A stretch of 63,111 bases of DNA, the filler included, from Folioceros fuciformis (lineage: Eukaryota), in NCBI GenBank assembly GCA_049999805.1. It is 17 parts of 17 records of this genome, joined end to end, with 100 filler letters (N's around TTAATTAATTAA, not from the genome) between each part and the next. Parts side by side here need not be neighbours in the genome. Positions count along the whole stretch, not along the records: positions 8,727 to 11,000 come from JBNGIO010004807.1; 16 more parts are not named here. The stretch is one strand, 5' to 3'. Each line of letters begins with the position of its first letter. Positions within the stretch are counted from its first letter, which is position 1. The notes under the pieces were generated by a model. The model did no database searches, was not told the DNA's origin, and saw only the letters and a list, made by a program, of their open reading frames with translations. The translations under genes were made by a program, and so were the position numbers. Shown here one piece after another: positions 1 through 52,999 of this stretch.

Positions 1-70
1 ACCAAACCATACCACTATTAACCCTTTTTCAACCAAAACAAACTACTAGCCCAAACTTTGGAGGTTCACA
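1..70 (-). repeat. Terminus of repeat family D (TGTGAACCTCCAAAG...), probable LTR end
   Basis: Reverse complement of the start of 33594-33965; also matches 50071-50277. The terminus is TG. Confidence 0.75.
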
Positions 71-356
71 AGTTTCAAACCTTCCTTACCTCTCCTGCTC
101 ATTCGAAGAACAAGAGGACAAACAGGAATAATAGAAGATTCCAACAAACCATAATGTTCCCTGAACATTATTGTCATATCCCTGCAACTTTTGTCAACGC
201 ACTCTACTTGTGGTCCCTTTTCGGTTGTAATCCTGTCACCATCTCACTTTCCCTAAAAGCACCTTACAGTGACTAACCTGCAATAGGATAGTTCACAGGC
301 ACATACCTTTGCTGGTATTCATCATTTAGCCTCTAAGTGTGAATTCATACCCAAAC

Positions 357-3300
357 ATGGGTGAGTCTTCATCCAATACGAATTACAGAGGAGGAGATGG
401 TTTTAGGGAAAAGGACAGGTTTGGTGGACAAGACTATGACATCTGGGTTATGAGGATGCGGGGCATTCTTCATAGTAAGAGACTATGGAAGATAACTATT
501 GACGAGGAAAAGGATGATGGAACTGATATGGCATCTCAGGAGGCTTGGGCATCAAGAATGAGCATGCAATGTACATCATTAGAAGTGGTCTTACTTCTGA
601 TATGATGCAACAGACCTCTGGATGTGCAACTGCTGCTGAAGTCTGGACTCGCTTGCAAAACTTGTATTCAGGTAACAACACAACTAGTCAAATGACCGCT
701 TTACGAAATCTACAGAACTGTAAAATGAAAGATGGTGACTCTGTTGAGAAGCACGTTGGGACCTTTAGGAGCCTAGTTTCAAAACTTGAGAGTGCTTCAA
801 ATGAGAGCGTAAAAGATGACATGCTAGCCCTACACCTGATGCTTTCTTTGCCTCCATCATGGTCACACTTTGTGACCTCATTAAATGCTTCAAAGCTCAC
901 AGCTATGAAACTGGCAAAGGCTTCAAATGTTACTCTCCCTAAGATGACATTCACAGAGTTATTGGGAGCTCTTCTTGAGGAAGAGGCTACAAGAGGACCT
1001 GTAAAGAGCAAACAACATGCCCTTTATACCACAAAACGAGGAAAGGGGGGCAAACCTAATTTCCAAGGTCGACAGTATTCTTCAAGTGCTGGGACTCCTC
1101 AGAAGGGTGTCACACAGAAGAAACCCAAGAAGGCTGGAAAGTGCCATTGGTGCCAAATTCCAGGCCATTAGGAGCATGAATGTCGTAAGAAGCAGGCCGG
1201 AATACCTTGCAAGGAGGGCAATTCCACTTCTGAGACACATGTTGTGGTAAAGAAGCAGTCCTCCCCGTCAGTCCTTACTGTAGGGACTAGGGAGTTTGCT
1301 TGCCCTCTTATTTATCCCACCTATCTATCCACAAGAACAGATTTTAGATCATTCCAAGAATGGTACCTAGACACTGATGCAACAGCGCACATATGTTTTG
1401 ACAGTAATGCCTTTGCAACTTATCAGCCAGTAACAGATTAGTTTGTTTACCTGGGTGATAATATATCCCTTGTGTCTCCTGGAAGAGGAACAATAAACCT
1501 TAAAGTTCCTTCAGGAATTACTCTGTTGCTCACAGATGTATATTACGTACCTGAGATGACAAGGAATCTTATACCTGTTAGAAAGCTAAACATGGATAAC
1601 AATACACACATCCTGTTTACACCTACAGAATGTAAGATTATAGATGCCGTTGATCCTCATAAGGTCTTGGCACATGGATCATCTTACAGTGATCTTTTTC
1701 GTCTTCACACCAATGTTGCACATGGTGCTGCACAAACTCACTTAGCTTCACAAGCTATTGATGCTTCTGCAAAGCAAATTGAAAAGGTGAAGTTATGGCA
1801 TGCCCGTTTAGGTCATCCACATAGTTCCAAGTTACAGCAGTTGGCTACAAGCGACTTATATCATGATGGCCAAATTGGTCCCTTGCCTCCCTTACCTCTC
1901 CGTGAAGCATGTGTACTTTCTAAGCGCCATCAGGCTGCCTTCAAGAATAAGACTCCACATCGAGCTTCTGAAGTGCTTGAATTGGTCCATACTGATATCT
2001 GTGGACCCCTCTCACAGCCCTCTATTGGTGGAGGTCGTTATTTCCTTACATTCACAGATGACAAAACACGTTTTGTTAAAGCTTATATCCTAAAGGCTAA
2101 AAGTGAAAGTTTCTCTCTATTCAAAGAATACATAAAGTATGTAGAGAGATGGACTGGACAACAATTAAAAACACTTCGCCCAGACAATGGGGGCGAATAC
2201 ACTTCAAATGAGTTTCAAACATTTTGTGCAAATGAAGGGATTGGTAGACAACTTACCATTGTTTACACGCCGCAGCAGAATGGCATCACAGAACGCCTCA
2301 ACCTCACTCTTCAGGAGATGGTTTCTTCACTGCTGCATCATGCAGCATTACCCCTACCATATTGGGCCGAAGCCCTTATGACATCTGTTTACCCGTTAAA
2401 CAGATTGCCAACCACTGCTATTGAAGGGCAGACACCATATGAAGCATTTCTTTGCAGAAAACCTTCTATTCAACATCTTCGTACCTTTGGGTGTCTTGCT
2501 TATGCCTTCATTCCTAAGGAGAAGAGAAAGAAATTATCCGCAAAGGCCAGAAGACTTCTTATGATTGGCTATACAGAGGGGATAAAAGCTTACAAACTCT
2601 ATGACATCTCTCGTGACAAAGTGATTTACTCACGAAGTGTTACATTTGATGAGGGAAAATTTCTACCTTCAGTGGGAGCTTTTCCCACTCTACAGGCTGA
2701 TGATACATCTTTCCCTTTCCCTGATGTTTGATGATTCTCCTCATGAGGATGTTGCTCCTGCAAGGGGGGAAGATCCACAAGATCAACAAGTGTATCAACA
2801 GGAAGAGTTAATATTGGATGCAGCAGACAATCATACCTTTGATGACCTGCAGTAGCAACCTCCTCCTGACGAGCAACTACCTGTCCTGACCCCACAACCA
2901 GTACTCCATTATCCTGCCAGAGAACGTCGAGCACTTGATTATTATCAAGCGCCTGACTTTAGACCTATCTCTTCCTATGCTTAGGCATACTCTCTCACTT
3001 TCTTGGATCCACTTGAGCCTCAGTCTCTACACGAAGCTTTAAGTCATCCTGATCATAAGGAATGGGAGAAAGCCATTGAATCGGAATACGATTCCCTAAT
3101 TGAGAATGGTACCTGGGAGATAGCTAAACTTCCTCCCGGTAGAAAACTGGTATCCTGTAAGTGGGTATTAAATTGAAAGTAAAGGTTGATGGTACCTTCG
3201 ATAGGTAGAAAGCCAGGCTTGTTGCCAGAGGCTTCTCTCAAATTCCTGGCCTTGATTACTTTGAAACCTTCGCTCTAGTTGTCAAACCTGCTACACTGCG

Positions 3301-4606
3301 AACCATGTGTGCAATTTCAGCTCACAGAGATTACGAATTGCAGATGTTTGATGTCAAAACAGCATTCTTAAATGAGAAGATAGATACAAAGATCTATATG
3401 CAGCAACCCCCTGGCTATGAGATTCAAGGCAAGGAGGAATATGCTTGCAAACTAAAGAAGTGTCTGTATGGACTGAAACAGTCTGCCATGAAATGGAATG
3501 AAGAACTAGACAAGGAACTTCTAGCTTTAGGCTTTACAAAAAGTAAAGCTGATGGTAGCCTATACATATACAAAACCACAGAGATAATATGCTACTTTGC
3601 TATATATGTTGACAATCTTATACTCTCCAGCAATACTCAGTTGTATATTGATAAGATCACTGATCTCCTGGCCACAAAATTCAAAATGTCAAATCTTGGT
3701 CCACTTCAGAGTTGCCTAAGTATCTATACTCAAAGGAATAGACGAACTAGGGTTATTACACTAACTCAACCAAGATACTTATTTGACTATGCTAAACAAT
3801 TTGGCCTCAAAGATGCTAAAGTAGTGGCTACACCCCTCCCTAGTGGCTTAAAGCTCAGCAAGAGCATGTCACCTGTCACACAAAGTGACAAGGATCAGAT
3901 GGTCAACGTTCCCTATAGACAAGCAGTTGGCAAACTCATTTACGCTGCCAACACAACCAGACCTGAGGTCGCCTATGCAACTAGTGTCTTGTCTCAATAT
4001 CTCGAGAACCCTAGACAAAAACACTGGAGTTGTGTTAAACGAGTTCTTCAGTATCTGAAGGGAACAACAAATGGAGGCATACTATACTCTTACCAATCAG
4101 GAGTTCCTCTTGACTTGAAGGTTTACACAGACTCTCACTACGCTGGAGATCTGGACACCAGAAAGTCCGTATCTAGATATTGTGTTTGTGTTGCTGGAGG
4201 ACCCATATGCTGGTCCAGTAAAAAGCAGCCAACAGTGGCGCTGTCTAGCACTGAAGCTGAATATCGGGTACTGAGAGCAGCAGCTAAGGAAATAGTCTGG
4301 TGCAAGCTTCTATTTTTAGAAATGGGGATCGACATTCCAACCTGCACAACTATACACACAGACAACCAAGGCTCGGTCGCTCTTGCTAAGAATCCAGCCT
4401 TCCACTCAAGGACGAAACACGTGGAAGTCGAATACTACTACATTCGTGAGTTAGTATCTGCAGGGACAATCGAACTGCAATATATTTCCACACAAGACAA
4501 TCCAGCTGATGTCTTAACCAAAGCTCTTGGACGAGAGCTACATGAAAAACATGTAAAGGGTCTTGGACTAGGGGAGTCAGAGACTTTCCTAGCTGATCCA
4601 ACCTGA
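357..4606 (+). mobile_element. Ty1/copia gag-pol, decayed (frameshifts and stops)
   Basis: Gag (RFGGQDYDIW, CHWCQIPGH knuckle), protease WYLDTDAT, integrase (WHARLGH, VHTDICGP, LRPDNGGEY, PQQNG), RT (DVKTAFL, LYGLKQS, YVDN), RNase H (SSTEAEY, NPADVLTK), in copia domain order. Confidence 0.96.
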
Positions 4607-4632
4607 ACTATGCTACCTACAAGACTCGCCTA

Positions 4633-4910
4633 CTACTCACTGTCATATTCACTGTCAGACACATGCATTGCTGCTGAGGCTTTCTTTGGGTTGCTAGAAT
4701 CATCATCAGTACTGGATGATAGCTATATGTAGTCCTCACTGAGCACTTTGTCTTCAATGATTTTGTGCACAAAACCTGTAGTGTGAGTTACATGTTGACA
4801 GCAAACGATTTTCAAAACTAGTGGGAGTAGAGAGTGGGAAAGACACATGGAAGGTTGGACTTACGATAATAGCTGATAACATGGCCTGGAAACTCGTCAC
4901 TCTCATAGAC
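4633..4910 (-). pseudogene. 3' part of the copia antisense accessory gene (end of main exon, intron, acidic last exon), truncated by the insertion at 4911
   Basis: Reverse complement is homologous to about 10095-10374. It reads ...EFPGHVISYY, then GTAAGT, then CTACAG and the acidic exon with one Q-to-stop change. Confidence 0.75.
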
Positions 4911-5652
4911 TGTGGAGACCACATGGTAGATAGGCCTCTTAGAAAATGAGTGGTATTTGTTTTTTTTTTGGAGTTTTGATAGAATTCCTTGAAGACATAA
5001 TTAGGAAACTATGTTAGATGGGGCTAGATTAGATAGGATGATCAGGGGATAGCGGTGGTGCAGTTTAGAAAGGCAAGAATCATCTAGCTAACTCGTGGCC
5101 GTGGAAAATGCGAAGTAGGGGGTGCCTGTGGAGAGAGGTGCCGGTGTGTGTGGAACCCTAAGTCGGGCGTGTTAGGGCGAGTTGTGTCCTCAGGAGCGTG
5201 CGGAAGGGGGTTGGGCATAGGCGTGTGGGTGGCGTGCTTGACTTGCCGTGGCCTTACCCAGGTGCGCCGGGGGCTGAGGATCTGAAGGCAGGAAGCTCAT
5301 CTGGCTTGCAGGCTTGGCAAGCTAGCTTGGCCTCTAGGTGAACGAATTCGACAAGCAGCCAGGCCGGGTAGGCTGGCTCCCTGGCTGGGTATGGAGGCCA
5401 AAGGTTGGCTAGCAGCCTCTGGCCAGTCGGCCTAGGCAAGAAAGTGACGGCCCAGGGGGCCAGCCAGCCAGGCCGGGAGGGGGAAAGGGCTGGATGGATG
5501 TGGAGGAGCTGCAGGGAGCGTTGCACCGGGCTGGGTGCAACCAGGGTCGGATCGGGTGGCCGACACGTGGCTCAGCAACTACTGGATCTGGAAGCCGACA
5601 GGAGGCCCAGTGGCAGTCGGAGCTGGCTAGGTAGGCTGTAGGCAGGTAGGCC
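4911..5652 (+). repeat. Repeat family A (TGTGGAGACC...), GC-rich, probable long LTR
   Basis: Sharp TGTGG junction interrupting the copia 3' region. Homologous to the reverse complement of about 45900-46291. Confidence 0.75.
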
Positions 5653-5752
5653 NNNNNNNNNNNNNNNNNNNNNNNNNNNNNNNNNNNNNNNNNNNNTTAA
5701 TTAATTAANNNNNNNNNNNNNNNNNNNNNNNNNNNNNNNNNNNNNNNNNNNN
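5653..5752. other. Artificial contig linker (N44-TTAATTAATTAA-N44). The same linker occurs at 8627, 11001, 17230, 18447, 19843, 22875, 26095, 28223, 33966, 35675, 42896, 49971, 56015, 58174 and 60176
   Basis: An identical 100-nt block with six-frame stops occurs 16 times. It is not biological. Confidence 0.98.
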
Positions 5753-8585: not shown

Positions 8586-8728
8586 AACTTCCAACTACCT
8601 ACACCCAGCACCTTTCCCCACAAGTCNNNNNNNNNNNNNNNNNNNNNNNNNNNNNNNNNNNNNNNNNNNNTTAATTAATTAANNNNNNNNNNNNNNNNNN
8701 NNNNNNNNNNNNNNNNNNNNNNNNNNAG

Positions 8729-9033
8729 TGTTGAGTTATCGAGCTCTATATGAGCTAAACTCATGTGGTGTTAGTTATCCCAGTTGGGTTCATACTAGAC
8801 TAGTTCTAGTTATTAGTGAACTTAGGATAGTGTAGATTATCCCATATTGAACCTGGAAGTTGTGTAGCCCTAAATGTACTACTTAAATGGAGACCTCGGA
8901 CCTCCACAGTAAGACAGTGGTGATGTGTATTGTTTTCATGGTTGTGATCACCAATACCACCCTCTCTTCTCTCCTCTCCTCTCCTACACTTGCACGTAGA
9001 TTGGAGTCGATCCTATTGACATGGTATCAGAGC
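8729..9033 (+). mobile_element. 293-bp 5' LTR (TGTTGAG...TTGACA) plus tRNA-iMet PBS
   Basis: LTR 8729-9021 is nearly identical to the solo LTR 52707-52999. TGGTATCAGAGC follows at 9022-9033. Confidence 0.92.
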
Positions 9034-9183
9034 CCGGTGCAGGCGGTGCAAGATCGGCGTAGGAGGTGCTGCAAGAGGCAGCAAGAGTGCACACCAGAAG
9101 CTAGAGCAGCTACGAGAAGTTGGAGCAGCTTGGAGGGAGATCGGCAGCAAGCGTCCCGGCAGCTAACTCTCATATCGAAGACA

Positions 9184-9356
9184 TATTGAAAAGACACTAT
9201 GGCTATAACTTAAACGACATAACTGTTCGCTATAGGTTGTAACCCTAACGAACGGGTACCTAATAATTATTTATTCTAAATACCCCTATAAACCATTATA
9301 TTATGTGCCTTTAATTTGCTAGATATTATCAACACTATCTCTTAACACTCCCACTT
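9184..9356 (-). mobile_element. Copia 3' LTR (~164 bp) with polypurine tract
   Basis: The minus strand reads AAGTGGGAG then TGTTAAG... and ends TTCAATA. Confidence 0.75.
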
Positions 9357-9613
9357 GTTGATGATTTCGAACAATAAATTCACAGTCGTGCTTCACTGGT
9401 ATCAGTCATTACGTGCGAGAACCAGCTGAGACTTCAGCCATGAACTATGAGTGCTTGGTTTCCTCCTACTCTTCGCCTCAAAACTCCATAATACGGTGTT
9501 TATTGGAGCGTGCTCAAAAGAAACCTCTTGAAAGCAGGTGTGCAACATTCATTCTTATCTTGTTCACTCTTAGCATTCTTTTGAGAGAGCAGCTAGAGAG
9601 TAACTTGACCAAG

Positions 9614-10374
9614 ATGTCGTCCTCTGAGGATTCGAAGGCGACTCCGCGCTATGTGAGGGATACCTTGGGCCGCTTTGCGCGTGCCAAGGGAGCTCCTAGG
9701 ACAACTGCCTCAAGTCCTGGCGGGAGGTCCGATGCTGGAACGAGTTCTCCCTTGCAAAAGCAAACCCTCAAGCGTCCAAGGGTCTTCTTCAACACTCCAC
9801 CTACTGTGAAGACAAGAGCCGCTGACAATATGGGAGCTCACGCACGTCCTATATCATCTGCAGGACATAGAGCTGCAAACACGCGACTGACTGAACATAA
9901 GCTTCCTATTTTTATAGACTCAGGTCCAGTCGCGATGTGGGAGGAAGGTGAGGGAAGGCCTCTTGTTCCCCTCAAGTTCCCAAGAGGTAGCCTCAAGCAC
10001 GATACAAGAATCATCGGTTTGGGGACTACTACGAAGCCCAATTCTCCTCTTTGGTATAGGTGCACTCTGTCCACAATTGTGATGGAGAGGATTAGAGTCT
10101 GCGAGAGTGAAGAGTTTCCAGGCCATGTTATCAGCTACTACAGTAAGTTCACACCTCCATGTGTCTTTCCCACTCTCTACTCCCACTGCTTCTGAAAATC
10201 TTTTGCTATTAACATGCAACTCACTCTACAGGTTCTGTGCACAAGATCATGGAAGACAGAGCGCTCAGTAAGGACTACATACAGCTATCATCCAGTACTG
10301 ATGATGACTCTGGCAACCCAAAGAAGACCTCAGCAGCAATATACGTGTCTGACAGTGAGTATGACAGTGAGTAG
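9614..10374 (+). CDS. Antisense accessory gene of a minus-strand copia. Predicted exons 9614-10142 and 10232-10374; the ORF is open upstream to 9413
   Basis: Lies between the pol end (10403-10497, minus) and the PPT/3' LTR. It shares a 64-aa block with 13587-13778. An 89-nt GTAAGT...CTACAG intron joins it in frame to an acidic exon ending ...YVSDSEYDSE*. Confidence 0.75.
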
Positions 10375-10402
10375 TAGGTGGGTCTTGTAAGTAGCAGAGT
10401 TT

Positions 10403-10497
10403 AGGTTGGATCAGCTAGGAAAGTCTCTGACTCTCCTAGTCCAAGACCCTTTACATGTTTTTCATATAGGTCTCGTCCAAGAGCTTTGGTTAAGACA
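10403..10497 (-). mobile_element. RNase H C-terminus of the same copia family as 357-4606
   Basis: Reverse complement is nearly identical to about 4510-4606 (LTKALGR...GLGLGESETFLADPT). Confidence 0.9.
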
Positions 10498-11000
10498 TGT
10501 GGGGTTAAAATATGGTACCCGAGGGTACCGCGAGGTCCACACAAGCCCTCTATGCCGTTGTAGCTCTGGGATTCGATCCCAAGGAAATGATTCGTGTTAA
10601 ACTACATAGGTTAGCTTCTAAAGTCAATTAGCACCCAAACTCGACTGACCCACGCACACACGTCCCGTGCTCGGTCTTTACCCAGTCCCCTTACTTCTCC
10701 CACCAGACGACCCTCCTACCACCCAGTCGCACCAGGGACTACCTCCCCCTGGACTACTCTTGGTGGCCCGCCGGACTACCCTCCGTTCCCCAATGGACTA
10801 CTACTGTCGTCTTTCGGGCTACCACTTGTGGGTCACACTCCCTCTCTCTTTCTCTCTCTAGGATTTCCTCTCTCTTTGAGTCGTCCCTACCTGACTGTTT
10901 TCTCGCGCCTTCCCTTTTGCGCTTTCCTTCCTTGGTTCTCCACAAAATAGCCTCTCACCCTCAGGATCAAACGCACACACATATGAACAACGACAATCTG
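10498..11000 (+). repeat. Repeat family C (TGTGGGGTTAAAATATGG...), probable LTR end
   Basis: Matches the reverse complement of 56115-56359 and is related to 20256 onward. It interrupts copia RNase H. Confidence 0.8.
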
Positions 11001-12354
11001 NNNNNNNNNNNNNNNNNNNNNNNNNNNNNNNNNNNNNNNNNNNNTTAATTAATTAANNNNNNNNNNNNNNNNNNNNNNNNNNNNNNNNNNNNNNNNNNNN
11101 CGGCGGATAATACTTGTTGAGCACCTTGCGCTCTCCCATTTCCCCCGAAGAGTGCCGAAGCCCCGACAGGGGGTTTCTAACTGAGGGAAGCCCGCTTAAT
11201 TCGCATAGTAAATTAGGGCCGCAGCAGGAATTTCCACAGTTAAACAAGACAAAATAAAGTGGCAACCCTCCTTTTTTTTCTTTTCACCCATCCTTACAGA
11301 CGCTCCATTGGCTATGCGTAGCGGAAGCTTTCGTTGGATTTTGGTGTCATTTATCTACTACCACTATGACGAATTTGGACTGTATCGCAGGTTTGCAGAA
11401 GACGTGAAAAACGATAAAAAAAACTCTCAATTTTTCTTTTGTTTTTTTCTTCGAGAAGAACCTCGTCCGGGGCGCTCTGCGCCCTCTTGGAGAATGCGTA
11501 CGGCCACCTCCGGCCTTCGTTTGCTTGCCAACTGCTTTTGCCCGAAACTAGAACGAAGAGATATAGGAAGGAGGCCAAGGCCACCTTGCTTTATTTTTCG
11601 CGCTTTTGTTTGGTGTTTTTCCTTATGATACAATTGAAACTCTCGGACGGTCATGGGATCTGTGGACGTTTGCTTAAAAGGCCCCCCGGTTACACGCAGT
11701 CGGGCTCCACTTGCATCGCAGGTGGAGGCCAGAAAACTTTTCCTAAAATCGATCCAGATTCGCAGATTATGCCATTACTACCTTATGACTTCAAAGCATG
11801 CAAGGCCACAAGTTGACTAATTTTCCTCCTGCCAAGCGTCTTGGGGTGCGAAGCCCGGAGCCGCGTGCCCCCGCAGTGCGGGCTCGACCCTTTTCTTAAC
11901 TCCATAGAGTTTGTGGGAGTCAGTTGTTGTGTAAGTACCCCATGACACCTAGAGGGATGTAGTAACCCTAGGAGAATGTTGCAAGTGCAGAATGTGGGGA
12001 TTGCATGTCTACAAAATCAGTGGCCAGCCTTTGGAATAGCAATGACATTGTAGTGAAGTTCACGTCCTGCAACATGGAATGTGAGCTAAGAATGTAGTGA
12101 ATTTTAGGTCCTACGACATGGAATGTGAGGTAAGAATGCAAGCAACTGCATGGGCTTCTTGCATTCTTAGGAGGAAAGCTAGCATGGAGTGGCATGTGGC
12201 CAACCTTCAAAATAGTAATGACATTGTAGTGAAGTTCGGGTCCTACAATATGGAATGTGAGTTGAGAATGCAAACAACTCATGGGCTTCTTGCATACCTA
12301 GGAGGAAAGATAGTATGGTTGTCCGTGCACTATGGTGTGGATTGTAGTCACTGC

Positions 12355-12550
12355 ACACATCCATGGCCCCGTCTAGCCTAATCACAAAGAATGAAACAGA
12401 GGAGCTTGATTGTGGGTAGACACATCCATGGCCCTGTCTAGCCTAATCACAAAGAATGAAACAGAGGAGCTTAATTGTGGGTAGACACATCCATGGCCCT
12501 GTCTAGCCTAATCACAAAGAATGAAACAGAGGAGCTTGATTGTGGGTAGA
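12355..12550. repeat. Tandem repeat, ~65-bp unit x3
   Basis: ACACATCCATGGCCCYGTCTAGCCTAATCACAAAGAATGAAACAGAGGAGCTTRATTGTGGGTAG occurs three times. Confidence 0.92.
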
Positions 12551-12795
12551 TTGAACAGCCATTTTGGTAGATTCAATATACCTAGAGGAACCCATGGGAT
12601 TGTGATGAGCAGCGAACCAAACACATGTGTTTTGTATGTCAATTCAATTTCTATTAGTGGCACAAGCAACCCAATGTATTCGTTCCTAGACTGTAACCCC
12701 AAGTCTAAGAGTCTAAGATTGAAAAGAATTTCACATCCTTCTTGCAAGCAACCCAGTTTTAATTTTAGGAATTTCTATGTAAAATATATATATTC

Positions 12796-13001
12796 TATTG
12801 AATGATTCATGAAGTACAATACTAATAAAAGAAAAAAAAATATGTCTTAAATAATAACTACCAAATTAGGGCTATAACTACCGTCAATGGGTGCATCCTT
12901 TCACAAGGTGCACCTATATAAAAATTAAAATTATGAAACTTGCCCTAACCCTAGTTGATATAGGCAACATACTAATAAGGGTCATTTCAACACTCCCACT
13001 T
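12796..13001 (-). mobile_element. Copia 3' LTR (~197 bp) with PPT
   Basis: The minus strand reads AAGTGGGAG then TGTTGAAA... and ends TTCAATA. Confidence 0.75.
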
Positions 13002-13241
13002 GTTGCTATATCTACTAGGCTTCTATTTGCCTCATATCGGTGCTTCAACTTCAAGTAATGTCCACACACGAATGATAGGTAGTGCACGAGCACAATAGTT
13101 ATTCTCACACGCTTGTGGAAATATGATGGAGTTGCATGTCGTGCCGCCAGCAGCTTGGTTAGTGCATTCCCAATTGTTGGTTTAAATTTTCGTGCCAGGT
13201 TTCAAGAATGGCTCACAGACCAACAAGCTCCCAACATTGTG

Positions 13242-14477
13242 ATGATGCTATATACTGATGTCAGTGGTAACCAAAAACAAAGGCGCACCTACAACAGGGA
13301 TACTCGCAGCCACTTCATCACTAAGAGGGTCAAGGAAAATCATGCCAAGATCACGAGATTTGCCACAACTAGCAACCCTGTGCAGCGGCTTCCACACTTA
13401 ATTCCAGCCAGAGTATCTTCAGCTGTCAACGCGGCGAGTAAAGTTGTGAGGCGGGCACTCCGGCGGAAGAAAAAGAAGATGGGAGCACCAGCCAGGAAGA
13501 CGCCTACCAGGGCCGCTGCAACACACACCGTCACTGAGAAGACTGCTGTGGAGGTTTGTTACAAATACGCGTCCCAAACTAACACTCCTCCTGTGCCAAA
13601 ATTCTTTTCCATCGGCGAGTTGTGGAAGAAGACCAAAATCTACTCGCTGGGAACAATCTCTAAGCCAGGCACACCAGTCTAGTATAAATGCTGGAAGACA
13701 GGCCTGAAGATGGTGCACGTAAGGGTTAGAGACAACAACCAAGTTCTCAACCACGTGATCAGCTTCTATCGTAAGCATCACACTTCCTCGAAACTCGAAA
13801 ACGTTGTTTTCCTATTTTCATTCACATCTGCACATTTCCTTGCGGTTCTGAATTACATGCACAGGGTTCGGTCTGCGGTTCATTATGGATTTGTTGTCCC
13901 AAAACCTTCACACTTAGCGGGTTACTGTGGAAGCTCACTACATAGTCGCTAACCCCGTTGATTTCAATCTCACAGTTTTCCCGTTTTTGTTTGCTTTTGA
14001 TTCATTTAGTTCTCATCTGACTCGGGTTCAAGTAGCAAGATGCAGCCTCAGACATATTTGTATAACTACACTAACCAGGCAGTCTGTGCCTTCGGGATAT
14101 CACCTTGAGCTGATTACTGCTTTTCCAGTTGCACGAAATATCTGCTGAAAATCCTAACCACTTGATCATTTTTGTTATCTGGTATTGATATCCTGATATG
14201 TTGTGCTGCCATCCAGAAACTTCAATATGCACTAAAAACTCCCACTGTTTGTGCAGGGTCTGAACAAAGAATTGATAAGGAGCAAAATCTGGACCACAAA
14301 GACAGAATTTCGTTTGATCCCACTTTCTCTAATTCCAAATCGAAAAATGAAGATCATGAGGCCAATGACATGGTGGACGACGATGAAGATAGCTGCGAAA
14401 ATTTGACAGGATCTCCTCGAGACCATAGTCACCAGTCAATCTCTGACTCTTCTAATGAGAGTTTGTATCGGAGCTAG
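13242..14477 (+). pseudogene. Antisense accessory gene of a second copia family (one W-to-stop change at 13680; predicted last exon 14257-14477)
   Basis: ORFs 13113-13682 and 13710 onward are in one frame. Homologous to 9614-10142, with a GTAAGC donor at 13771 in the same position. Confidence 0.72.
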
Positions 14478-14494
14478 AATACTCCCCCAGGCCT

Positions 14495-17137
14495 AGTGCC
14501 TGAACTGTTTGTTATGCAATTCTTTGCTTAATGGCTTTGTGAAAACATCAGCAGGATTTTCTTATGTAGGGACATATTCCAGTTTTACCTTTCCAGCTGC
14601 AACTAAATCTCTTATAAAATGATATTCCACTTCAACATGTTTTGTCCGATAGTGAAACACTGGATTTTGTGCCAAAACAATTGCACCTTGATTGTCTGTA
14701 TGTACTGTTGTGCAAGCTGGAATTAATAAGCCAAGTTCCTTAAATAATAACTTGTACTATATCACCTCTTTGGCAGTTGCTGTAAGCACTCTATACTCAA
14801 CTTCGGTGCTGGGCCAACTCATAGGTCCTTCAGCAACACTAACCACATGACCAGAAACGGATTTCCTGGTGTCTACATCTCCTGCATAATCGGAATCTGT
14901 AAAAACTTTCAAAGTAAGTTCTTCATCATGCTTGCCCTGAAATCGTATGCCTCTGTTAAACGTGCCTTTCAAATATCTAAGTACATGTTTCAAATATGTC
15001 CTGTGTTCTTGTCCTAGATTCTCCAAATACTGAGACAAGACACTAGTTGCATAAGCTATCTCGATTCTTGTGGTATTAGCAACATAAATCAACTTACCAA
15101 TAGCCTTTCTATAAGGTATCTTAGACATAGCTTCCTTTTTAGTTTGTGTACTAGAACTCATAATTTTACTTAACCTAAGTCCTACTGGTAAAGGAGTAGA
15201 AACAGGCTTAGCATCCTTTAAACCTAATTGTTCTACATTGTCTAAAATATATCTGGGTTGAGATAAATTTAAAAATCCTTTACTTTTATTTCTTTGTATA
15301 TGCACACCTAGACAGCTTTATAAAGGTCCTAAATGTGTCATTTTAAATTTAGCAGCTAAGAAATTATTAACTTTGCTAATGAAAGCTGTTCTATTGCAAG
15401 TTAAAATCAGGTCATCTACATACAAGGCTAAATAGCAAATAACAGGACTTTTGATGATAATATAAAGACTGCTATCTGCGCGACTCTTTACAAAACCTAA
15501 GGTATGTAACTCTTCATCTAACACCAAATTCCATTCTCTTACTGACTACTTAAGTCCATAAATTGTTTTAATAAGTTTGCAAATTAACTTCTCCTTTCCC
15601 TTTACTTCATAACCAAGAGGCTGCTGCATATATATATATATATCAGTATCGAGTTTGCCATAAAGGAAAGCAGTTTTAACATCCAACATTTGCAACTCAT
15701 AGTTCTTACAAGCTAAAATAGAACATAAAACACGGAATGTAGAAAACTTCACAACAAGAGCAAAGGTCTCGAAATAATCCAAACCAAGTACTTGAGAAAA
15801 GCCTCTGGCAACAAGTCTGGCTTTATATCTATCGAAAGTGTCATCAGCCTTAACTTTCAACTTAAACACCCAGTTACAAGACACTAAATTCCTCCGGGAG
15901 GCATCTCCACTAACTCCCAAGTGCCATTTTCAATCAAGGAATCATATTCTGATTTAATGGCAGCTTACCATTATTTACTATCAAGTCTACTCAAAGCTTC
16001 CTTAAGAGATTGAGGTCCAAGAGGAAGGGAGGTGGCAGCCAGGACTTTTGCATAAGACACACCTGCTCTACCTGCTGTAAAATCAGGAGCTTGATAATAA
16101 TTAGGAGCGTGCCGCTCACGGGTTGGATAACGACGAGGTGGAGGCTCTGGCTCAGAAGCCAATTGTGGAAGTAAAGTAGAATGCTCTTCAAAAACATCAG
16201 CATCATTATTGACAATGTCCTTCCCTGCAAGATTAATATTTTCATCTTGAATTCCCATTAAAAGAACAGGTAATGGAATAACTGGTTCATGCATGGGTTC
16301 AACCACAAAATGTTGCTTGGATTCACCCCTCGAAATGGGAATACCATAATCTGTCTGATCAAAATGAGAAATTGGAGGAAGGGCTGAATCATTAGCACCC
16401 TCCTGTTGAGCTGAATTTTCAGATCAACTAATCTTACCAACCCAAAGGTACTCTCATCAAAAGTAACACTTCTTGCATAAAAAACTATATTTTTAACATC
16501 ATCATATAATTTATAGACCTTGATACTTTTAGTATACCCAGCATGAGAAGTTTCCTTGACTTATCTGAAAACTTCTTACGCTTCTCTGTGAGTATGAAAG
16601 CATAAGCAACACAATCAAAAATCTTTATGTGTTGAATTGATGGCTTCCATCCTATAAAAGCCTTATAAGCTGTCATATTATCAATAGAATTTGTTCGCAA
16701 CCTATTTTTGAGGTAAACAATATTTAAATTCAAGCGCTCTACAACTCCATTCTATTGAGAAGTGTAAACCACTGTCAATTGTCTCCCAATGCCAACATCT
16801 ACACAATAATCTTGGAAAGCATGGAAGGTAAATTCTCCACCATTATCTGATCTCAATGTCTTCAATTGCTTTCCAGTTCACCTTTCATATTGTTTTACAT
16901 AATCCTTAAAATAGGAAAAACAATCACTTTTGTTTTTCAAAATATATGAAGTGATAAATTTGGTTTTATCATCTGTAAAAGGTTAAAAAATATTTTTCAC
17001 CACCTATGGACTCTTGAGAAAGAGGCCCACATAAATCTGTATGTATAAGCTCCAATGTTTTATGTGCTCTATGAGGAGTCAAATTTTTGAAAGCAGCTTG
17101 ATGTTGCTTGGACAAAACACAAGATTCACAAAGTAGA
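14495..17137 (-). mobile_element. Ty1/copia pol (INT-RT-RH), decayed; sister family of 357-4606
   Basis: IHTDLCGP, RRYPTRERHAPNYYQAPDF linker (similar in element 357-4606), YKARLVARGF, YVDD, DSDYAGD. Confidence 0.95.
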
Positions 17138-18724
17138 TGATGAATCAAACTCACTAAGTTTTGAACGTGTATTCGTTCCTAGACTGTAACCCCAAGTCTA
17201 AGATTAAAGAGAATTACACATCCTTCTTGNNNNNNNNNNNNNNNNNNNNNNNNNNNNNNNNNNNNNNNNNNNNTTAATTAATTAANNNNNNNNNNNNNNN
17301 NNNNNNNNNNNNNNNNNNNNNNNNNNNNNGGGTTCGAATCCCGGCAACAAGATTTCAACCACATTTCTTCAGTTTACTAATTTATTACAAGAATCACTTT
17401 GTTTTGTGAAGTATCATCATATTATGTAATAGTATATACTCTATGATACTTTATATGATATATATGATACTACACCCTATACTTTACTATAATACAAAAG
17501 TTTTATTTTTGTTACAAATGATACTACATAACTAGATAACAAGCGTTCATTAGGCTTCAGGGTTGGCCCCTAGTGTTCCTTTCATGGTTTATCTCTCTCT
17601 AGAGGTGGATTTTTTTTTCCATCTTTTTCTACTAAAATAAATAAGTTCCTTTCGCTAACAAGGAAATAGAATAACACAAACCGCTTTCTTCGCTTTGTTT
17701 CATGACATACAATAGTAAAAATTAATAAAATATGAAATATCATCATACTTTACAAAAATACTAAAGTTTCATTTGTGTTATTCATCATGCTATATAAGTA
17801 GATATAACACCATGCAAAGAGGTTAAGGAATACTATCCCTTAACCTCTACTAGTAGACCCTTTTCACAAAAATACGCATAGACTTCCATGTGTTTTTCTA
17901 ATGTAATATGTCTTTGACATAATTCTTGTGTAATTAGGCCGAAGATGGAATGCTTTATTTTTCAAGAGTAATGACCATCATCAAAGAAAGTGGGTGCCCA
18001 CTGGTTGGCAACCACTTTCTATGTGTACTTTGGCCATTATAATCCATCAGGGTAGTCCTACACAAAGCTTGGAGCTTCTAAGCTTAGAATAAGAGAAATA
18101 CATCCCAAAGGCCTACATCTGAACTATCAGACTGTCAACTATAAAATTTACTTTGTTTACAAAGTTTCTATTTGATGAAGCAAGTATATGAAGTGGCACT
18201 AGGGCCATTGTTTTTTTTTATCTACAAAGTATACAAGAGAACTAAGGGTCCCTAGGGCCATCATTTCTTTCATCTAGGTTTAGGGTTTGATCTATGAAGT
18301 ACAGCATTTATAAAGCAAGTATACAAAGTGACCCTAGAGCCATAGTTTCCAACAAAGCGGTTTAAGAGCCACAACTTCTTTTAATTCATATGAGGCATAA
18401 GCAAACATAAAATCATGTAAAACTAATATCATTGAGTCTTCTAAGTNNNNNNNNNNNNNNNNNNNNNNNNNNNNNNNNNNNNNNNNNNNNTTAATTAATT
18501 AANNNNNNNNNNNNNNNNNNNNNNNNNNNNNNNNNNNNNNNNNNNNGGAATTGTGCCCCTTCGAATCTGAATGAAAAGTCGCAGCTGTCTGGATAGTGGC
18601 GCTTCGTGTCTCCTCGCTCCCTGCCAGCGGAAGCAGGATCACAGGATGGTGTTGTAACAGGAATATAAGATGCTGAATAGCAGTCAAGACAGCTTGACAT
18701 CTTGTGCGTGTAGCGAGAGATAGA

Positions 18725-29042: not shown

Positions 29043-29197
29043 AAACCACAACGAGAGGGGTACCACGAGAAAGGAATCAAACATTACTCCCCAACAACTC
29101 TACTGGAGTGGGAGTAATCTGCGTGTTCTCATCGTGAAGTTGATGACAACACGGCACCGGCTTCCACTACAAATGGCGGTCGCTAAGAGAATGTGCA

Positions 29198-29653
29198 GTG
29201 AGGGCAAGCATCTTCATGAACATCAGGATGACAACCAGCAGCGGAGAACACCGAGAAGCCAACGAGGGTTGCCTTAGCAATAAGCGAGGTAGAAGGGAGG
29301 GAGCACCTGCAGAAATACACCTTGTGGCATGGCCAACACCGCCAACTGACATGAAGCGGGCCTTGCGAAGCTACAGGGTGAGGTGGTCTGGCGTTTCTGA
29401 GATAACGTGGTGTCTGGTTACAGGCGAAGAGGACTCCAGGTCTTCAGATTGCATCGATCCCATCTCCAAGAACAACAATACTTATCTGAGCGAAGGAGAA
29501 GAGGAAGAAGTAGACAACTGGTCGGCAGTCCAACTTCAGCACCAGCCTACCATCACCAATGAATCTCAAGCCGCAGCTGTTCAACAACAGGTGATTGGAT
29601 TATTCGCTCAAGCTTCATCCACTTGCTGTCGAAAAAATCTGCTGTTGTCATAA
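29198..29653 (+). CDS. Putative antisense accessory ORF of copia 29954-33593
   Basis: Sits between the pol end and the PPT, opposite to pol. Contains MTTSSG, NKRGRR, RVRW and EGEEEE. Confidence 0.5.
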   Translation: MRASIFMNIRMTTSSGEHREANEGCLSNKRGRREGAPAEIHLVAWPTPPTDMKRALRSYRVRWSGVSEITWCLVTGEEDSRSSDCIDPISKNNNTYLSEGEEEEVDNWSAVQLQHQPTITNESQAAAVQQQVIGLFAQASSTCCRKNLLLS

Positions 29654-29953: not shown

Positions 29954-32900
29954 CTAAGTGTTTTGAAAATAGCTGTAGAAGTTTATCAGCCCTAGGCCCT
30001 CCATATGCTGATAATGTTTAGCTTTTGGTAGGCCTTTAGTCAAGATGTAAGCAGTGTTTTTGTCGGTGGGGACATAGCCTACTGTTGCTATTCCCTTTTC
30101 AACCATATCTCTGATATAGTGGTGCTGGATCTCAATATGTTTAGTTCTAGCATGAAATTTGGGATGGGCAACCAGGTCAAGGGCAGACATATTGTCACAC
30201 AATAGGAAGTAGGCTCATTCTGAATTTGTCCCAAATCTGCAAGGAAGGTTCGTTCCCATTCCAGTTCCTTTGAAGCTTCTGTTAAACTCTTGTATTCTGC
30301 TTCAGTTGATGATAAGGCAACTGAAGCTTGTTTCTTGCTGCTCCAGTTGATCACAGCTGATGAGAGCATGAAACAGTATGCAGAAAGACTTCGTCTGGAA
30401 TCACTATCTGATGCCCAATCAGCATCAGTGAAGCCTGCAAGAGTGAGTTTACTTGTCCCTTTTGACTTGTATGCTAGACCATAGAATTTTGTCCCTTTTA
30501 AGTACCTAAACACCCTCTTGGTCGCTACCCAATGTACACGACCAGGGTTTTCTAAAAACTGAGATAATGTTCTAATTGCGTATTGTATGTCAGGGCGAGT
30601 CCAGTTCGCAATGAACAAGAGGCTCCCAACAGCCTGTCGATAGGGGATTGTGGCCATTTCCTTAATCTCATCGTGTCCTTGAGGGCATTGTAAGCTAGTA
30701 AGTTTAATCCCCAATGATATAGGTGTGGCTGCTGGACGTGCTTGCTCTAGCTTAAAACGTGTCAGCATTTCCTGTATGTATTGGTACTGATGTATGATCA
30801 ATAATCCTTCAGCTCTGACTCTAAGTAGCTGGATGCCGAGACAGAATCTCAACTCGCCTATGTCTTTCATTTCAAATTTACTGCTAAGCATCTCCTTTAC
30901 TTGTGCTAACAGTGATTGATCATTTGTTGCAAGGATCACAACATCCACATATATAGCCAAGATCACGTACCCTGAACCTTTGGAGAGTTTATAAACATTT
31001 CCATCAGCAGCACTTTGAACAAAGGAATGACTCAACAAGTATTCATGAATGGTAAGGTACCAAACTCTACCACTTTGTTTCAGCCCATAGATAGTTTTCA
31101 GCAACTTCAGGACTTTGTTTGTATGCTTGGAGTCCACATAACCCTCTGGTTGAACCATATACAGGTCTTCATCCAGAGAGCCATAAAGGTAAGCTATACA
31201 AACATCCATTTGCTGCAAGTCAAGATTGAATTCGGCAGCCAATGTGAATATCATTCTTATTGACTGTGCTCTTACAACAGGAGAAAATGTCTCTTGGTAA
31301 TCAAGGCCCTCAACCTGGGTAAATCCTCGTGCCACCAACCTTGCCTTGTACCTCGCTATATCTCCTTTAGCATTCAATTTCAGTTTGAAGACCCACTTAC
31401 ATGATATGGGTTTTCTTCCTTTTGGCAGATCCACAAGGATCCAAGTGTTGTTTTTGACAAGGGAATTGTATTCGTCATCAACAGCAACTTTCCACTTGTC
31501 TTTCTCAAGTCCTGAATAGGCTTCTGTAAGTGTCTTGGGTTCAAGGTGAATAGTACTTGATGCTGAGTTACATACCTCAGCAGATGATGTCCTAAAGTCA
31601 ATTGACTCATATCTTGGCTCCCTCCACTGTTCAGGAGGGTTTCTCTGTCGAGTAGACTGTCTTAATGGAGGATCTGGATCAGGGACAGTTTGTATGTTCT
31701 GAGGTATATCTTATACCTCATTTCCAGGAGGTAACTCCTCTCCCTCTAAATCTGGAACAGGTGGGTGATCCTCTAACTGTTCTTGATGTTCTGCTGTAGG
31801 TGGCATTTGTGCAGCCTGAACATCAGGACCTTGTTGATGTTCCTGAATATCCCGTAGAGGTGCTATGGCAGGAACATATGCATCGTCAGTAGCATCATCA
31901 GAAGGATAAACAGCATCAATAGGGTCTGCAGCGGAAGTAGGGAGAGGTAAATCTCCTGATGGTAGAATATTCAGTAACGGATCTGAAAGGTTTGGCTCCG
32001 TAATTTCTAGGAAAGTAACAGATCGCGCTAATATCAATTTTTGATTTACAGGATCATACAGCTTGTATGCTTTAGATTGCTCGCTGTAACCCACAAAAAC
32101 AAGGGCTTGGGCTCGAGGATCCAATTTCCTGCGTTTCTCCCCTGGAACGAGAGCAAAAGCCTTGGAACCAAAAACTCTAAGGTGTAGCAGACTGGGCTTT
32201 CGACGCCACATTGCTTCATATGGGGTCTGGGAGGTAAGGGAACTGGTAAACAGTCTGTTCAAGATGTAGGTCGCAGAGACTATGGCTTCTGCCCAGAAGG
32301 TTTGGGGCAGACCAGCCCATAGGAGCATACTTCTAGTCATGGAAAGGAGTGTTTGGTTCTTTCGTTCAGCAACTCCGTTTTGCTGCGGAGTATAAGGGAC
32401 AGTGAGTTGACGCTGGATGCCTTGTTCCTGCAGGAAAGAATCAAAAGCATGGTTCACAAATTCAGAACCGTTATCAGTGCGGAGACATTTGAGTTGTTTT
32501 CCCGTCTGGCGCTCAACCATCTGTAGCCAATCCTGAAAAAAGGTAAATGTATCACTTTTCAGATGAAGTGGGTAAGTCCATGTGTATCTGGAAAAATCAT
32601 CTGTGAGGCAGAGATAATAAATTGCTCCCCCTAACGAGGCAACTTGGATCTTTCCAGAAATATCAGCATGGACCAATTCTAGAATTGAGGTAGCACGATA
32701 AGACGCTGCTTGAGGGAATGGTAGTTCCTTCTGTTTGGCCACGATACAAGCTTCACAAGGAGGTAGCTCCTTGAATACTTGAGGTAACCTTTCTTCGTGG
32801 CAATCCTGTAGGGACATGTCAAGTAACTTTCGTTTGTTGACGTGCCCTAATCTTGCATGCCATAGGACAGCAAGTTTTGTTGACTGTCTTGTGATAGCAG

Positions 32901-33593
32901 CTGCCTTATGCTGAACAGCATAAATATCCAACTTATACAATCCATGTTCCACGACACCTTTGAACACTGGAAAGCTAGGTTTTCTTATGCGGTAGAACGT
33001 ACAAATTCTATCTGCAGCTTGCATCTCATACTCATTTGTTTGCATGAGCTTGCTTAGGGAGAAGAGGTTCTTAGCCATGGACGAAACGTACAGTAGGTCC
33101 TCCACTATAAGAATAGACCCATCATGCAAGATGAATTTGCATGAACCACTTCCCTGTACAGGTAGACTAGTTCTGTTTGTTTCATCACCTAACAAAACTC
33201 TTTCATTATTATACGCAGCAGTAAACTCATAGAACTGATTTTTATCTCTGCAGATGTGGGAAGTTGCCCCAGAATCTAGATACCAATTATCCTCTGGGGG
33301 AAAGGTACGAGCCAAGCAAACTGTAAGGATCTTCACCGCTGGTTTAGTGTCACCTTGATTCTTCTGCTTGGCTGATACTGCTGCAATCGTCTTTTGTACA
33401 CGCTGTGGCTCACCTGCCTTTTTCCTTCTGCAGTCTCTTGCCCAATGCCCTCCAACCCCACACCAGTGGCAGTTGCCAGGGCGTTTTACTGACTGAGGAG
33501 GCCTATTACTAGGATTCACAGGCATTTTTCCTTTGCCCTTGAATGTCCTTTGGTTAATCGCCAGTATCCTCTCAGACTTACTCTTAGGAGTGC
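29954..33593 (-). mobile_element. Ty1/copia gag (C-terminal part)-pol, lightly decayed
   Basis: CHWCGVGGHWARDC, WYLDSGAT, WHARLGH, LRTDNGSEF, RT YKARLVARGF, DADWASD, SSTEAEY. Confidence 0.96.
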
Positions 33594-33965
33594 TGTGAAC
33601 CTCCAAAGTTTGGGGTAGTAGTTTGTTTTGGTTGAAAAAGGGTTAATAGTGGTATGGTTTGGTTTTCTTTTTCAACTTATTTTTCCTAATTTTCCTTTAT
33701 TTTCTGGTCATTTTTCCTATTTTTCTTTGTGCTAATTGGGTTAATTGACCAGGAAATAGTGGGTTTGGTTATAAGAGTGGGTATAGGTTTGGTCCCAGAG
33801 CTGGGAAGGTTTAGGTTCGGTACCAGGCCATAGGGTTGGGTGATTAGTTTAATATTAATTAAAGATATATAATATTAAATGATTAAATAATAATATTATA
33901 ATATTATAATATTATAATAATATAATAATGGTTTGAACATAGGAACGGGTATCTGGGTATGTCAG
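33594..33965 (+). repeat. Repeat family D inserted in copia gag
   Basis: Begins TGTGAACCTCCAAAGTTTGGGG. Inverted copies at 1-70 and 50071-50277. Confidence 0.8.
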
Positions 33966-45900: not shown

Positions 45901-46291
45901 TGGCCTATCCAGCTGCCTGCTCTCAGGATCCTCAGCCCCCCGACGCACTTGGGCTAGGCCATGGCAAGTCTAAGCACGGCACCCACACGCCTATGCCCAA
46001 CCCCTTTCGCACGCTCTTGAGGCCACAACTTGCCCTTGAGGCTCCACACATGCCGACATCCCTCTCCACGGGCACACCCTACCCCCTACTTCACATTTTC
46101 CACGGCCATGGGTTAGCTAGACGATTGTTGACTTTCTAAACTGCACCACCACTATCTCCTGATCATCCTATTTAATCTAGCCTTATCTAACACAGTTTCC
46201 TAATTACCTCTCCAAGGAATTCTATCAAAACTCCAAAAAAAACAAGTACCACCCATTTTCTAAGAGGCCTATCTACCATGGGGTCTCCACA
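42996..46291 (-). repeat. Repeat family A, more than 3 kb of GC-rich low-complexity sequence ending ...CTCCACA
   Basis: The right end is the reverse complement of 4911 onward. The interior is rich in GCCAGC/CTAGC motifs with no recognisable protein. Confidence 0.65.
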
Positions 46292-52706: not shown

Positions 52707-52999
52707 TGTTGAGTTATCGAGCTCTATATGAGCTAAACTCATGTGGTGTTAGTTATCCCAGTTGGGTTCATACTAGACTAGTTCTAGTTATTAGTGAACT
52801 TAGGATAGTGTAGATTATCCCATATTGAACCTGGAAGTTGTGTAGCCCTAAATGTACTACTTAAATGGAGACCTCGGACCTCCATAGTAAGACAGTGGTG
52901 ATGTGTATTGTTTTCATGGTTGTGATCACCAATACCACCCTCTCTTCTCTCCTCTCCTCTCCTACACTTGCACGTAGACTGGAGTCGATCCTATTGACA
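52707..52999 (+). mobile_element. Solo LTR (293 bp) with 5-bp target-site duplication CCTAC, inside copia gag
   Basis: CCTAC|TGTTGAG...TTGACA|CCTAC. Near-identical to 8729-9021. Confidence 0.95.

Follow-up and report, generated by a model that had tools for sequence, protein, structure and literature searches.

Introduction

Plant Ty3/gypsy retrotransposons carry antisense open reading frames (ORFs) between pol and the 3′ long terminal repeat (LTR), termed aORF-3R, among them gene23 of maize Grande and those of rice RIRE2, Silene Retand (TRP28) and bean (ORF2) (PMC7264820, PMC11963269, PMC4093653). Some of the encoded proteins are nuclear or predicted to bind DNA (PMC7264820, PMC11963269, PMC4093653). 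In common bean, all 15 of the families with an antisense ORF2 are gypsy, and the two copia families with an extra ORF carry it in sense (PMC4093653). Spliced antisense genes expressed from the 3′ LTR are known from deltaretroviruses, namely HBZ of HTLV-1 and APH-2, APH-3 and APH-4 of HTLV-2, HTLV-3 and HTLV-4, and their products are nuclear regulators (PMC10186651). Here we describe a probable spliced antisense accessory gene of a Ty1/copia clade, found as three copies (A, B and C) in two families (A/C and B) in a stretch of 63,111 bases from Folioceros fuciformis (assembly GCA_049999805.1), the whole of which is called the window below.

The gene resembles the gypsy aORF-3R in its location between pol and the 3′ LTR, its antisense orientation and its lack of a clear function; in the small sample here, of three copies, it is present in 2 of 2 families and 3 of 3 copies. 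It differs in having a copia host and in matching no Pfam family, TRP28 (PF04195) included, and on sequence grounds the relation is taken to be one of analogy, not homology. No intron in an antisense aORF is mentioned in the passages of PMC7264820 and PMC11963269 that contain 'intron' or 'splic', and the word 'antisense' is absent from a 2019 survey of plant LTR-retrotransposon lineages (PMC6317226).

With HBZ and the APH genes the gene shares its nature as an antisense protein gene at the 3′ end of a retroelement, splicing and an LTR promoter being only predicted here. Those genes belong to vertebrate retroviruses, no sequence relationship to them was seen, and neither bZIP nor any other domain was recognised here by Pfam. 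By analogy, they are what the copia gene most plausibly works like. SIRE-type copia elements also have an additional, env-like ORF downstream of pol and before the 3′ LTR, but it is in sense and read from the element's own transcript, whereas the gene described here is antisense and without similarity to the SIRE ORF. An intron inside an LTR retrotransposon is known from Ogre of pea and Medicago, where it lies in sense between the gag-protease and reverse transcriptase (RT) ORFs and is spliced from part of the element's own transcripts (PMC6317226); the intron predicted here lies on the other strand. In a literature search that most subscription journals lay outside, no copia element turned up with an accessory gene that is antisense or spliced. 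The gene extends the known gypsy antisense ORFs and, if spliced as predicted, the spliced deltaretroviral antisense genes to copia, and is not a new kind of gene.

Predicted structure of the gene and its place in the host elements

The window is made up of 17 pieces of 1.1-7.1 kb. It contains 34 N runs (1,408 letters), which pair into 16 identical 100-base linkers of the form N44-TTAATTAATTAA-N44 (for example at 5653-5752, 8627-8726 and 11001-11100). Because the pieces are joined by artificial linkers, adjacency in the window says nothing on genome neighbourhood, and copies A, B and C sit on three unlinked pieces. The pieces and the parts of each copy, in window coordinates, were as follows (nt, nucleotides; pI, isoelectric point).

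8727-11000, plus strand: piece with copy A
9614-10142, plus strand: copy A exon 1; ATG at 9614, 176 codons and the first nucleotide of a split codon, intact, basic, pI 10.3
10143-10231, plus strand: copy A predicted intron; 89 nt, phase 1, GTAAGT...CTACAG, T fraction 0.34
10232-10374, plus strand: copy A predicted exon 2; stop TAG 10372-10374, acidic, Ser-rich, pI 4.5
11101-17229, plus strand: piece with copy B
13242-13770, plus strand: copy B exon 1; Met-Met start at 13242/13245, interrupted by the in-frame TAG 13680-13682
13771-14256, plus strand: copy B interval from donor to far acceptor; GTAAGC...GTGCAG, T fraction 0.34-0.35, with a nearer candidate acceptor (13863/13864) inside it
14257-14477, plus strand: copy B candidate acidic terminal exon; stop TAG 14475-14477
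1-5652, minus strand: piece with copy C
4633-4910, minus strand: copy C; exon-1 remnant 4910-4865, predicted intron 4864-4776, predicted exon 2 4775-4633

Only the last 15 codons of exon 1 are left in copy C, because another repeat, 84% identical to 45911-46292, begins at 4910/4911.

The location of the antisense gene inside a Ty1/copia element, between the junction of polypurine tract (PPT) and 3′ LTR on one side and pol on the other, is supported in 3 of 3 copies. The hosts were assigned to Ty1/copia from the domain order gag - protease - integrase - RT/RNase H, read by Pfam on the strand opposite copy C. The host coding regions were placed as follows.

527-4606, plus strand: copy C host gag-protease-integrase-RT/RNase H; pol stop TGA 4604-4606
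527-1171, plus strand: copy C host, Retrotran_gag_2
1442-2731, plus strand: copy C host, gag_pre-integrs, rve and SH3_retrovirus
3209-4606, plus strand: copy C host, RVT_2
10401-10497, minus strand: C-terminal end of copy A host pol; stop TAA 10403-10401, cut at 10497/8 by another repeat
14493-16025, minus strand: copy B host pol (RT-RNase H); stop TAG 14495-14493, decayed, with 4 stops in the frame read; RVT_2 at 15549-15929

The last 30 residues of pol remain in the copy A host and are 93% identical to those of the copy C host. The stop of the gene and the convergent stop of pol are separated by 26 nt in A, 26 nt in C and 15 nt in B. On the other side of the gene, a 17-mer is common to A (9344-9360, plus strand) and B (12989-13005, plus strand); these two places are its only exact matches in the window, where shuffles predict 0.01. 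On the element strand it reads as a run of purines and then TGTT, that is, a PPT/LTR-start junction. With pol on one side and this junction on the other, the gene takes up, in antisense, the region from pol to the 3′ LTR. No LTR pair that would delimit the full LTR of the host elements is present on a single contig. A search of metagenome contigs with the 19-mer of the PPT/LTR junction gave 18 loci, none with similarity beyond the seed.

Probable splicing to an acidic last exon

The initial annotation had described HVIS[YF]Y, one further nucleotide and a GTAAG[T/C] donor in all three copies, and this was confirmed in each. The HVISYY codons of copy A end at 10141 and are followed by one nucleotide (10142) and GTAAGT (10143-10148); in copy B, HVISFY ends at 13769, followed by 13770 and GTAAGC (13771-13776); in copy C, on the minus strand, HVISYY ends at 4866, followed by 4865 and GTAAGT (4864-4859). 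When the six frames of the window were scanned with the relaxed motif [HNQ][VIL][IVL]S[YFW][YFH], four matches were obtained. Three were the copies of the gene, each followed by N+GTAAG, and the fourth, at 23290, was not so followed. The 126,222 strand positions of the window contain 112 instances of GTAAG (8.9e-4 per position). Given this rarity, chance is an unlikely reason for finding it at an identical codon offset in the diverged family B, and the two families that share this offset have saturated synonymous sites. The similarity of A and B in the frame of the gene ends at A 10147 and B 13775, i.e. at the donors.

The two junctions proposed initially were reproduced as sequence joins. Joining 10142 to 10232 in copy A is in frame; it takes out 89 nt ending in CTACAG and leads into an acidic, Ser-rich tail that runs to TAG 10372-10374, for a predicted spliced product of 223 residues. 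Joining 13770 to 14257 in copy B is also in frame, takes out 486 nt ending in GTGCAG and again leads into an acidic, Ser-rich tail, which runs to TAG 14475-14477. Copy C has the same 89-nt interval as copy A (4864-4776), with no indel between them, an acceptor AG at 4777-4776 and a stop at 4635-4633. The acceptors read CTACAG/G in A and C and GTGCAG/G in B. The acidic ORF of copy A is reachable only via the AG at 10230, and GTAAGT has by far the best consensus of the four in-frame GT donors. The intervals have a T fraction of 0.34-0.35, the exons one of 0.19-0.24.

The acidic last exon had likewise been noted at the start, and an in-phase acidic, Ser-rich terminal ORF was found in both families, just before the pol stop. 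The combined fraction of Asp, Glu and Ser is 0.43 in family A and 0.50 in family B. When all window ORFs of at least 45 codons were screened on the composition of their last 46 residues, these two (A 10213-10371 and B 14166-14474) were the only 2 of 578 with at least 0.43 Asp, Glu and Ser and at least 0.2 Asp and Glu. From these signals, splicing of the gene to the acidic last exon is judged probable. Of the gene of two or more exons inside a retrotransposon that had been proposed at the outset, the antisense copia gene with a selected coding exon 1 thus stands as a finding, and its splicing stands as a prediction.

An unlikely alternative is that the antisense gene is real but unspliced, its protein terminated by the stop that comes next after the HVIS[YF]Y codons (10193-10195 in copy A) and the acidic ORF being 3′ untranslated sequence. 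The exon-1 frame of copy A does continue for 18 codons to that stop, and in B for about 60, but these read-through tails differ in length and are unrelated in sequence, and the similarity of A and B stops exactly at GTAAG. The last exons of A and B are not alignable, and the intron and exons of A and C are equally diverged, which would fit an unspliced gene; yet an acidic ORF of exceptional composition has been kept in phase in both families, its end 15-26 nt short of the pol stop, and the interval before it is T-rich like an intron.

Several observations weigh against the spliced gene. We infer splicing from sequence signals; of the sequencing data placed on the N-free piece 8727-11000, a single contig touched it, at 8820-8852, and none fell on the gene. 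Copy A alone is intact (1 of 3): besides the stop in exon 1 of copy B, copy C has an in-frame TAG at 4725-4723 in exon 2. Position -1 of the donor is A or C and not the usual G. A and C are 87.2% identical across the exon-1 tail, 86.5% across the intron, 89.5% across exon 2, 85.2% across the spacer and 95.8% across the pol tail, all without indels, so that intron and exons show no contrast; in exon 2, about 11 of the 15 differences change an amino acid, by a hand count on the alignment. The copy A intron is not significantly similar to the first 94 nt of the copy B interval (z score 1.6) or to the rest of it (z 0.9). The last exons of A and B are alike in composition only, their alignment score being reached by 45% of composition-keeping shuffles, and a GA-rich stretch could give an acidic ORF without being translated. 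Other AGs of copy B open frames of 57-71 codons too, and its far join was chosen partly because the expected tail results. The comparison of indel frequency in intron and exons that had been suggested initially could be made, but with no indels anywhere between A and C it is uninformative; the two copies have decayed neutrally since they inserted.

The acceptor of copy B is ambiguous, the copy being decayed. The far AG (14255/6) leads into the in-frame acidic exon. The nearer AG (13863/4), which the initial annotation had named as a second candidate, would give an intron of 94 nt, near the 89 of copy A, but meets a TAG after 17 codons, the same frame being open to 14147. It was rejected as a demonstrable homologue of the acceptor of A: the global alignment was suggestive, local scores did not exceed those of shuffles (z 1.6 for the intron and 1.4 for the start of exon 2), and homology is a possibility only. 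A second intron in copy B was also rejected, the only phase-1 GTs being at 13871, 14009 and 14060, none with good consensus.

Exon 1 as coding sequence

Exon 1 is well supported, by comparison of the two families, as a real, selected coding sequence common to both. The families are related but separate outside the gene, with pol identities of 59.7% for the protein (452 residues) and 65.8% for the DNA (1,531 nt); pol of the other copia families of the window is 35-43% identical to that of the copy C host, and exon 1 had no match in those families by tblastn (the remaining rows had E values of 4.3 and 9.8). The exon-1 proteins of A and B aligned over 162 codons with 54 identical residues and a score of 128 (z 19), the null from 500 shuffles being 30.8 ± 5.1 with a maximum of 60. 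The DNA of the gene gave no blastn alignment between A and B. The start codons correspond (A 9614, B 13242/13245), and the best-conserved part of exon 1 is its last ~60 residues.

Identity of A and B at the first, second and third codon positions was 0.49, 0.52 and 0.29 in exon 1 and 0.69, 0.83 and 0.41 in pol of the same elements, although the pattern comes from a protein-guided alignment and is somewhat biased by it. The proportion of nonsynonymous differences (pN) was 0.505 in the gene and 0.232 in pol, and that of synonymous differences (pS) was saturated in both (0.778 and 0.81). By these values the gene evolves, at the level of its protein, about twice as fast as pol, yet it is constrained as a protein.

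The codon pattern bears on the explanation in which the antisense transcript acts as RNA, giving double-stranded or small RNAs over the 3′ end of pol, the ORF being incidental or weakly used. With the stops 15-26 nt apart, the 3′ end of a polyadenylated antisense mRNA must overlap pol, and a role of this kind has been raised in a review for antisense aORF transcripts (PMC7264820). Low identity at third positions relative to first and second, and a 162-codon protein alignment where the DNA is not blastn-alignable, point to selection on the protein, and we consider an RNA role in place of the protein quite improbable.

Equally improbable in our judgement is a passenger, that is, a piece of a host gene with its intron captured in reverse by an ancestor of both families and without a role for the element. 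Antisense capture of an intron-containing host gene would account for the intron directly, and transduction has been discussed in the same review as an origin of aORFs (PMC7264820). A functionless passenger would decay, however, and here frame, start, donor and acidic tail were kept while pol diverged to 59.7% identity; no homologue was found in protein searches, which did not cover the host genome.

In an all-frames comparison of A and B the frame of the gene gave E 8e-13, and the next best, the reverse 'shadow' frame, gave E 8e-5. On the element sense strand, an ORF of 101 codons in A (9920-10225, minus strand) and one of 130 codons in B (13419-13811, minus strand) run across the intron and the final part of exon 1. 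Their mutual similarity (E 8e-5) is best read, from the relative strength of the two frames, as the shadow of the antisense frame. That there is no gene, only chance ORFs and splice-like motifs of decaying repeats or the shadow of a sense-strand feature, is disfavoured as very improbable: stops in 2 of 3 copies, the lack of database relatives or a domain, the low confidence of the AlphaFold2 model (below) and the overlapping minus-strand ORFs would fit it, but the alignment at z 19, the lead of the gene frame over the reverse frame and the conservation of start, donor offset and position relative to pol all stand against it.

Protein properties and search for relatives

The exon-1 protein is strongly basic in both families (A: pI 10.3, charge +12; B: pI 11.0, charge +29) and has clusters of Lys and Arg. 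The predicted tails have pI 4.4-4.5 and Ser next to Asp or Glu; that of copy A has 46 residues.

Relatives of the exon-1 protein were sought in several resources. A homologous-protein search confirmed 0 of 51 candidates. Exhaustive HMMER over 1.84 billion representatives gave 0 matches at E ≤0.001, a scale at which relatives as distant as B are borderline, the match of A to B (E 4.8e-10 in the 63-kb window) scaling to ~1e-3 in a library of that size. A profile of A, B and C gave 0 of 389 candidates at E ≤0.01. Pattern searches for the protein of the gene gave 280 matches in metagenome contigs and 11 in viral contigs, of which none was confirmed. A degenerate pattern of the donor region gave 0 matches in genome contigs and 0 in viral contigs. 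Pfam returned no family at E up to 10, TRP28 (PF04195), SMC-like and bZIP included, the only match among PDB sequences had E 0.86, and the best score in the ESM Atlas was 0.77, under lead level. An AlphaFold2 model from a 4-row alignment had a mean predicted local distance difference test score (pLDDT) of 36.2 and no secondary structure. By these searches the gene appears to encode a protein family absent from the sequence and structure resources searched.

For the host, pol of the copy C element (3209-4603, plus strand) had a best full-length identity of 46% among 5.8 billion proteins. One 264-residue fragment was 69% identical, over 54% of the query, and the named matches were from flowering plants and oomycetes at 30-45% identity. 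Public protein sets have poor coverage of the organism or of this copia clade.

Another copia family of the window has an antisense ORF of 168 codons at 29147-29653 (plus strand), between its pol (30088-33642, minus strand) and a presumed LTR. It has a basic start, an acidic Glu-rich stretch and no Pfam match, and may be an analogous accessory ORF. As a homologue of the gene described here it was rejected, its alignment score (29) being equal to the shuffle mean.

Proposed working of the gene

Position, orientation, exon-1 constraint, splice-site motifs and in-phase acidic ORFs were observed; the transcription, splicing, promoter and function set out below are predictions from them. Candidate antisense promoters were found upstream of the start codon in both families.

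9287-9292, plus strand: copy A candidate antisense promoter element, TATAAA, 327 nt before the start codon (9614), within the reverse-complemented 3′ LTR
12915-12923, plus strand: copy B candidate antisense TATA box, TATATAAAA, about 325 nt upstream of the ATG, likewise within the LTR

A TATA box at a like distance in both families would be compatible with a promoter lying in the 3′ LTR. Transcription would begin in, or just inside, this LTR, the TATA box being ~325 nt before the ATG, proceed toward pol and end inside the coding region of the pol C-terminus. In copy A the gene would comprise the basic exon 1 of 176 codons, the 89-nt phase-1 GT-AG intron and exon 2 with the 46-residue tail rich in Ser, Asp and Glu. 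Since the two LTRs of an element are copies of each other, the promoter copy of the 5′ LTR would drive transcription outward into the flanking host DNA wherever an element has inserted.

The intron would be opposed to the genomic RNA of the element, would not be spliced from it and would be copied into each new insertion. This survival through retrotransposition had been put forward initially, and its logic agrees with the principle of the Ty1his3-AI indicator, in which an intron is spliced only from the transcript where it lies in sense (PMC8074290). The indicator is engineered and has the reverse arrangement: its intron is in sense to the element and so is lost on transposition.

The protein would be a nuclear regulator of the element's own expression that binds nucleic acid or chromatin, a role suggested by analogy with the nuclear product of Grande gene23 and the HBZ and APH proteins. 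The antisense mRNA overlapping pol could in addition feed double-stranded RNA. More tentatively, and with rather less confidence than in splicing, we suggest that this copia lineage may long have carried an LTR-driven, intron-containing antisense gene for a basic-plus-acidic nuclear regulator; it would be the copia counterpart of HBZ and APH and, among LTR retrotransposons, the first antisense accessory gene to have its intron as part of the inherited structure of the element.

Copia elements are usually regarded as gag-pol only, with a sense env-like ORF in addition in SIRE, and retrotransposon annotation depends on uninterrupted ORFs and known domains. An accessory gene that is spliced, lies on the opposite strand and has no relatives escapes ORF scans and domain-based annotation alike. 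Should the gene be real, copia elements can possess regulatory genes, much as complex retroviruses do; the intron that is retained marks, from within the element, the strand from which the gene is expressed; and the forced overlap of the gene's mRNA with pol is a direct handle on how an element might tune its own expression or trigger silencing.

Neighbouring features

The region 8727-9348 was considered as the LTR of the copy A host and rejected: a plus-strand element other than the copy A host has its LTR at 8729-9021 and its primer-binding site next to it. This LTR has 292 bp, and the primer-binding site, of the initiator-Met type, lies at 9022-9033 and reads TGGTATCAGAGC. A solo copy of the LTR (TGTTGAG...TTGACA; 99.3% identical) is found at 52708-52999, with a 5-bp target duplication, CCTAC, on its flanks. 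With a foreign LTR and primer-binding site beside copy A, the copy A host is nested in the leader of that plus-strand element. Upstream of copy B, in the presumed reverse-complemented LTR region, two tandem repeats were found.

12355-12550: 65-bp unit, 3.0 copies, 97% matches
12049-12138: 44-bp unit, 2.0 copies

Almost all Pfam-matched long ORFs of the window are of Ty1/copia origin (Retrotran_gag_2, gag_pre-integrs, rve, SH3_retrovirus, RVT_2), and a clear host gene was not seen in the window. The G+C content is 64.8% at 44001-46000 and 33-50% in the rest of the window, and sequence related to the 44001-46000 region (84% identical) adjoins copy C at 4910-5297.

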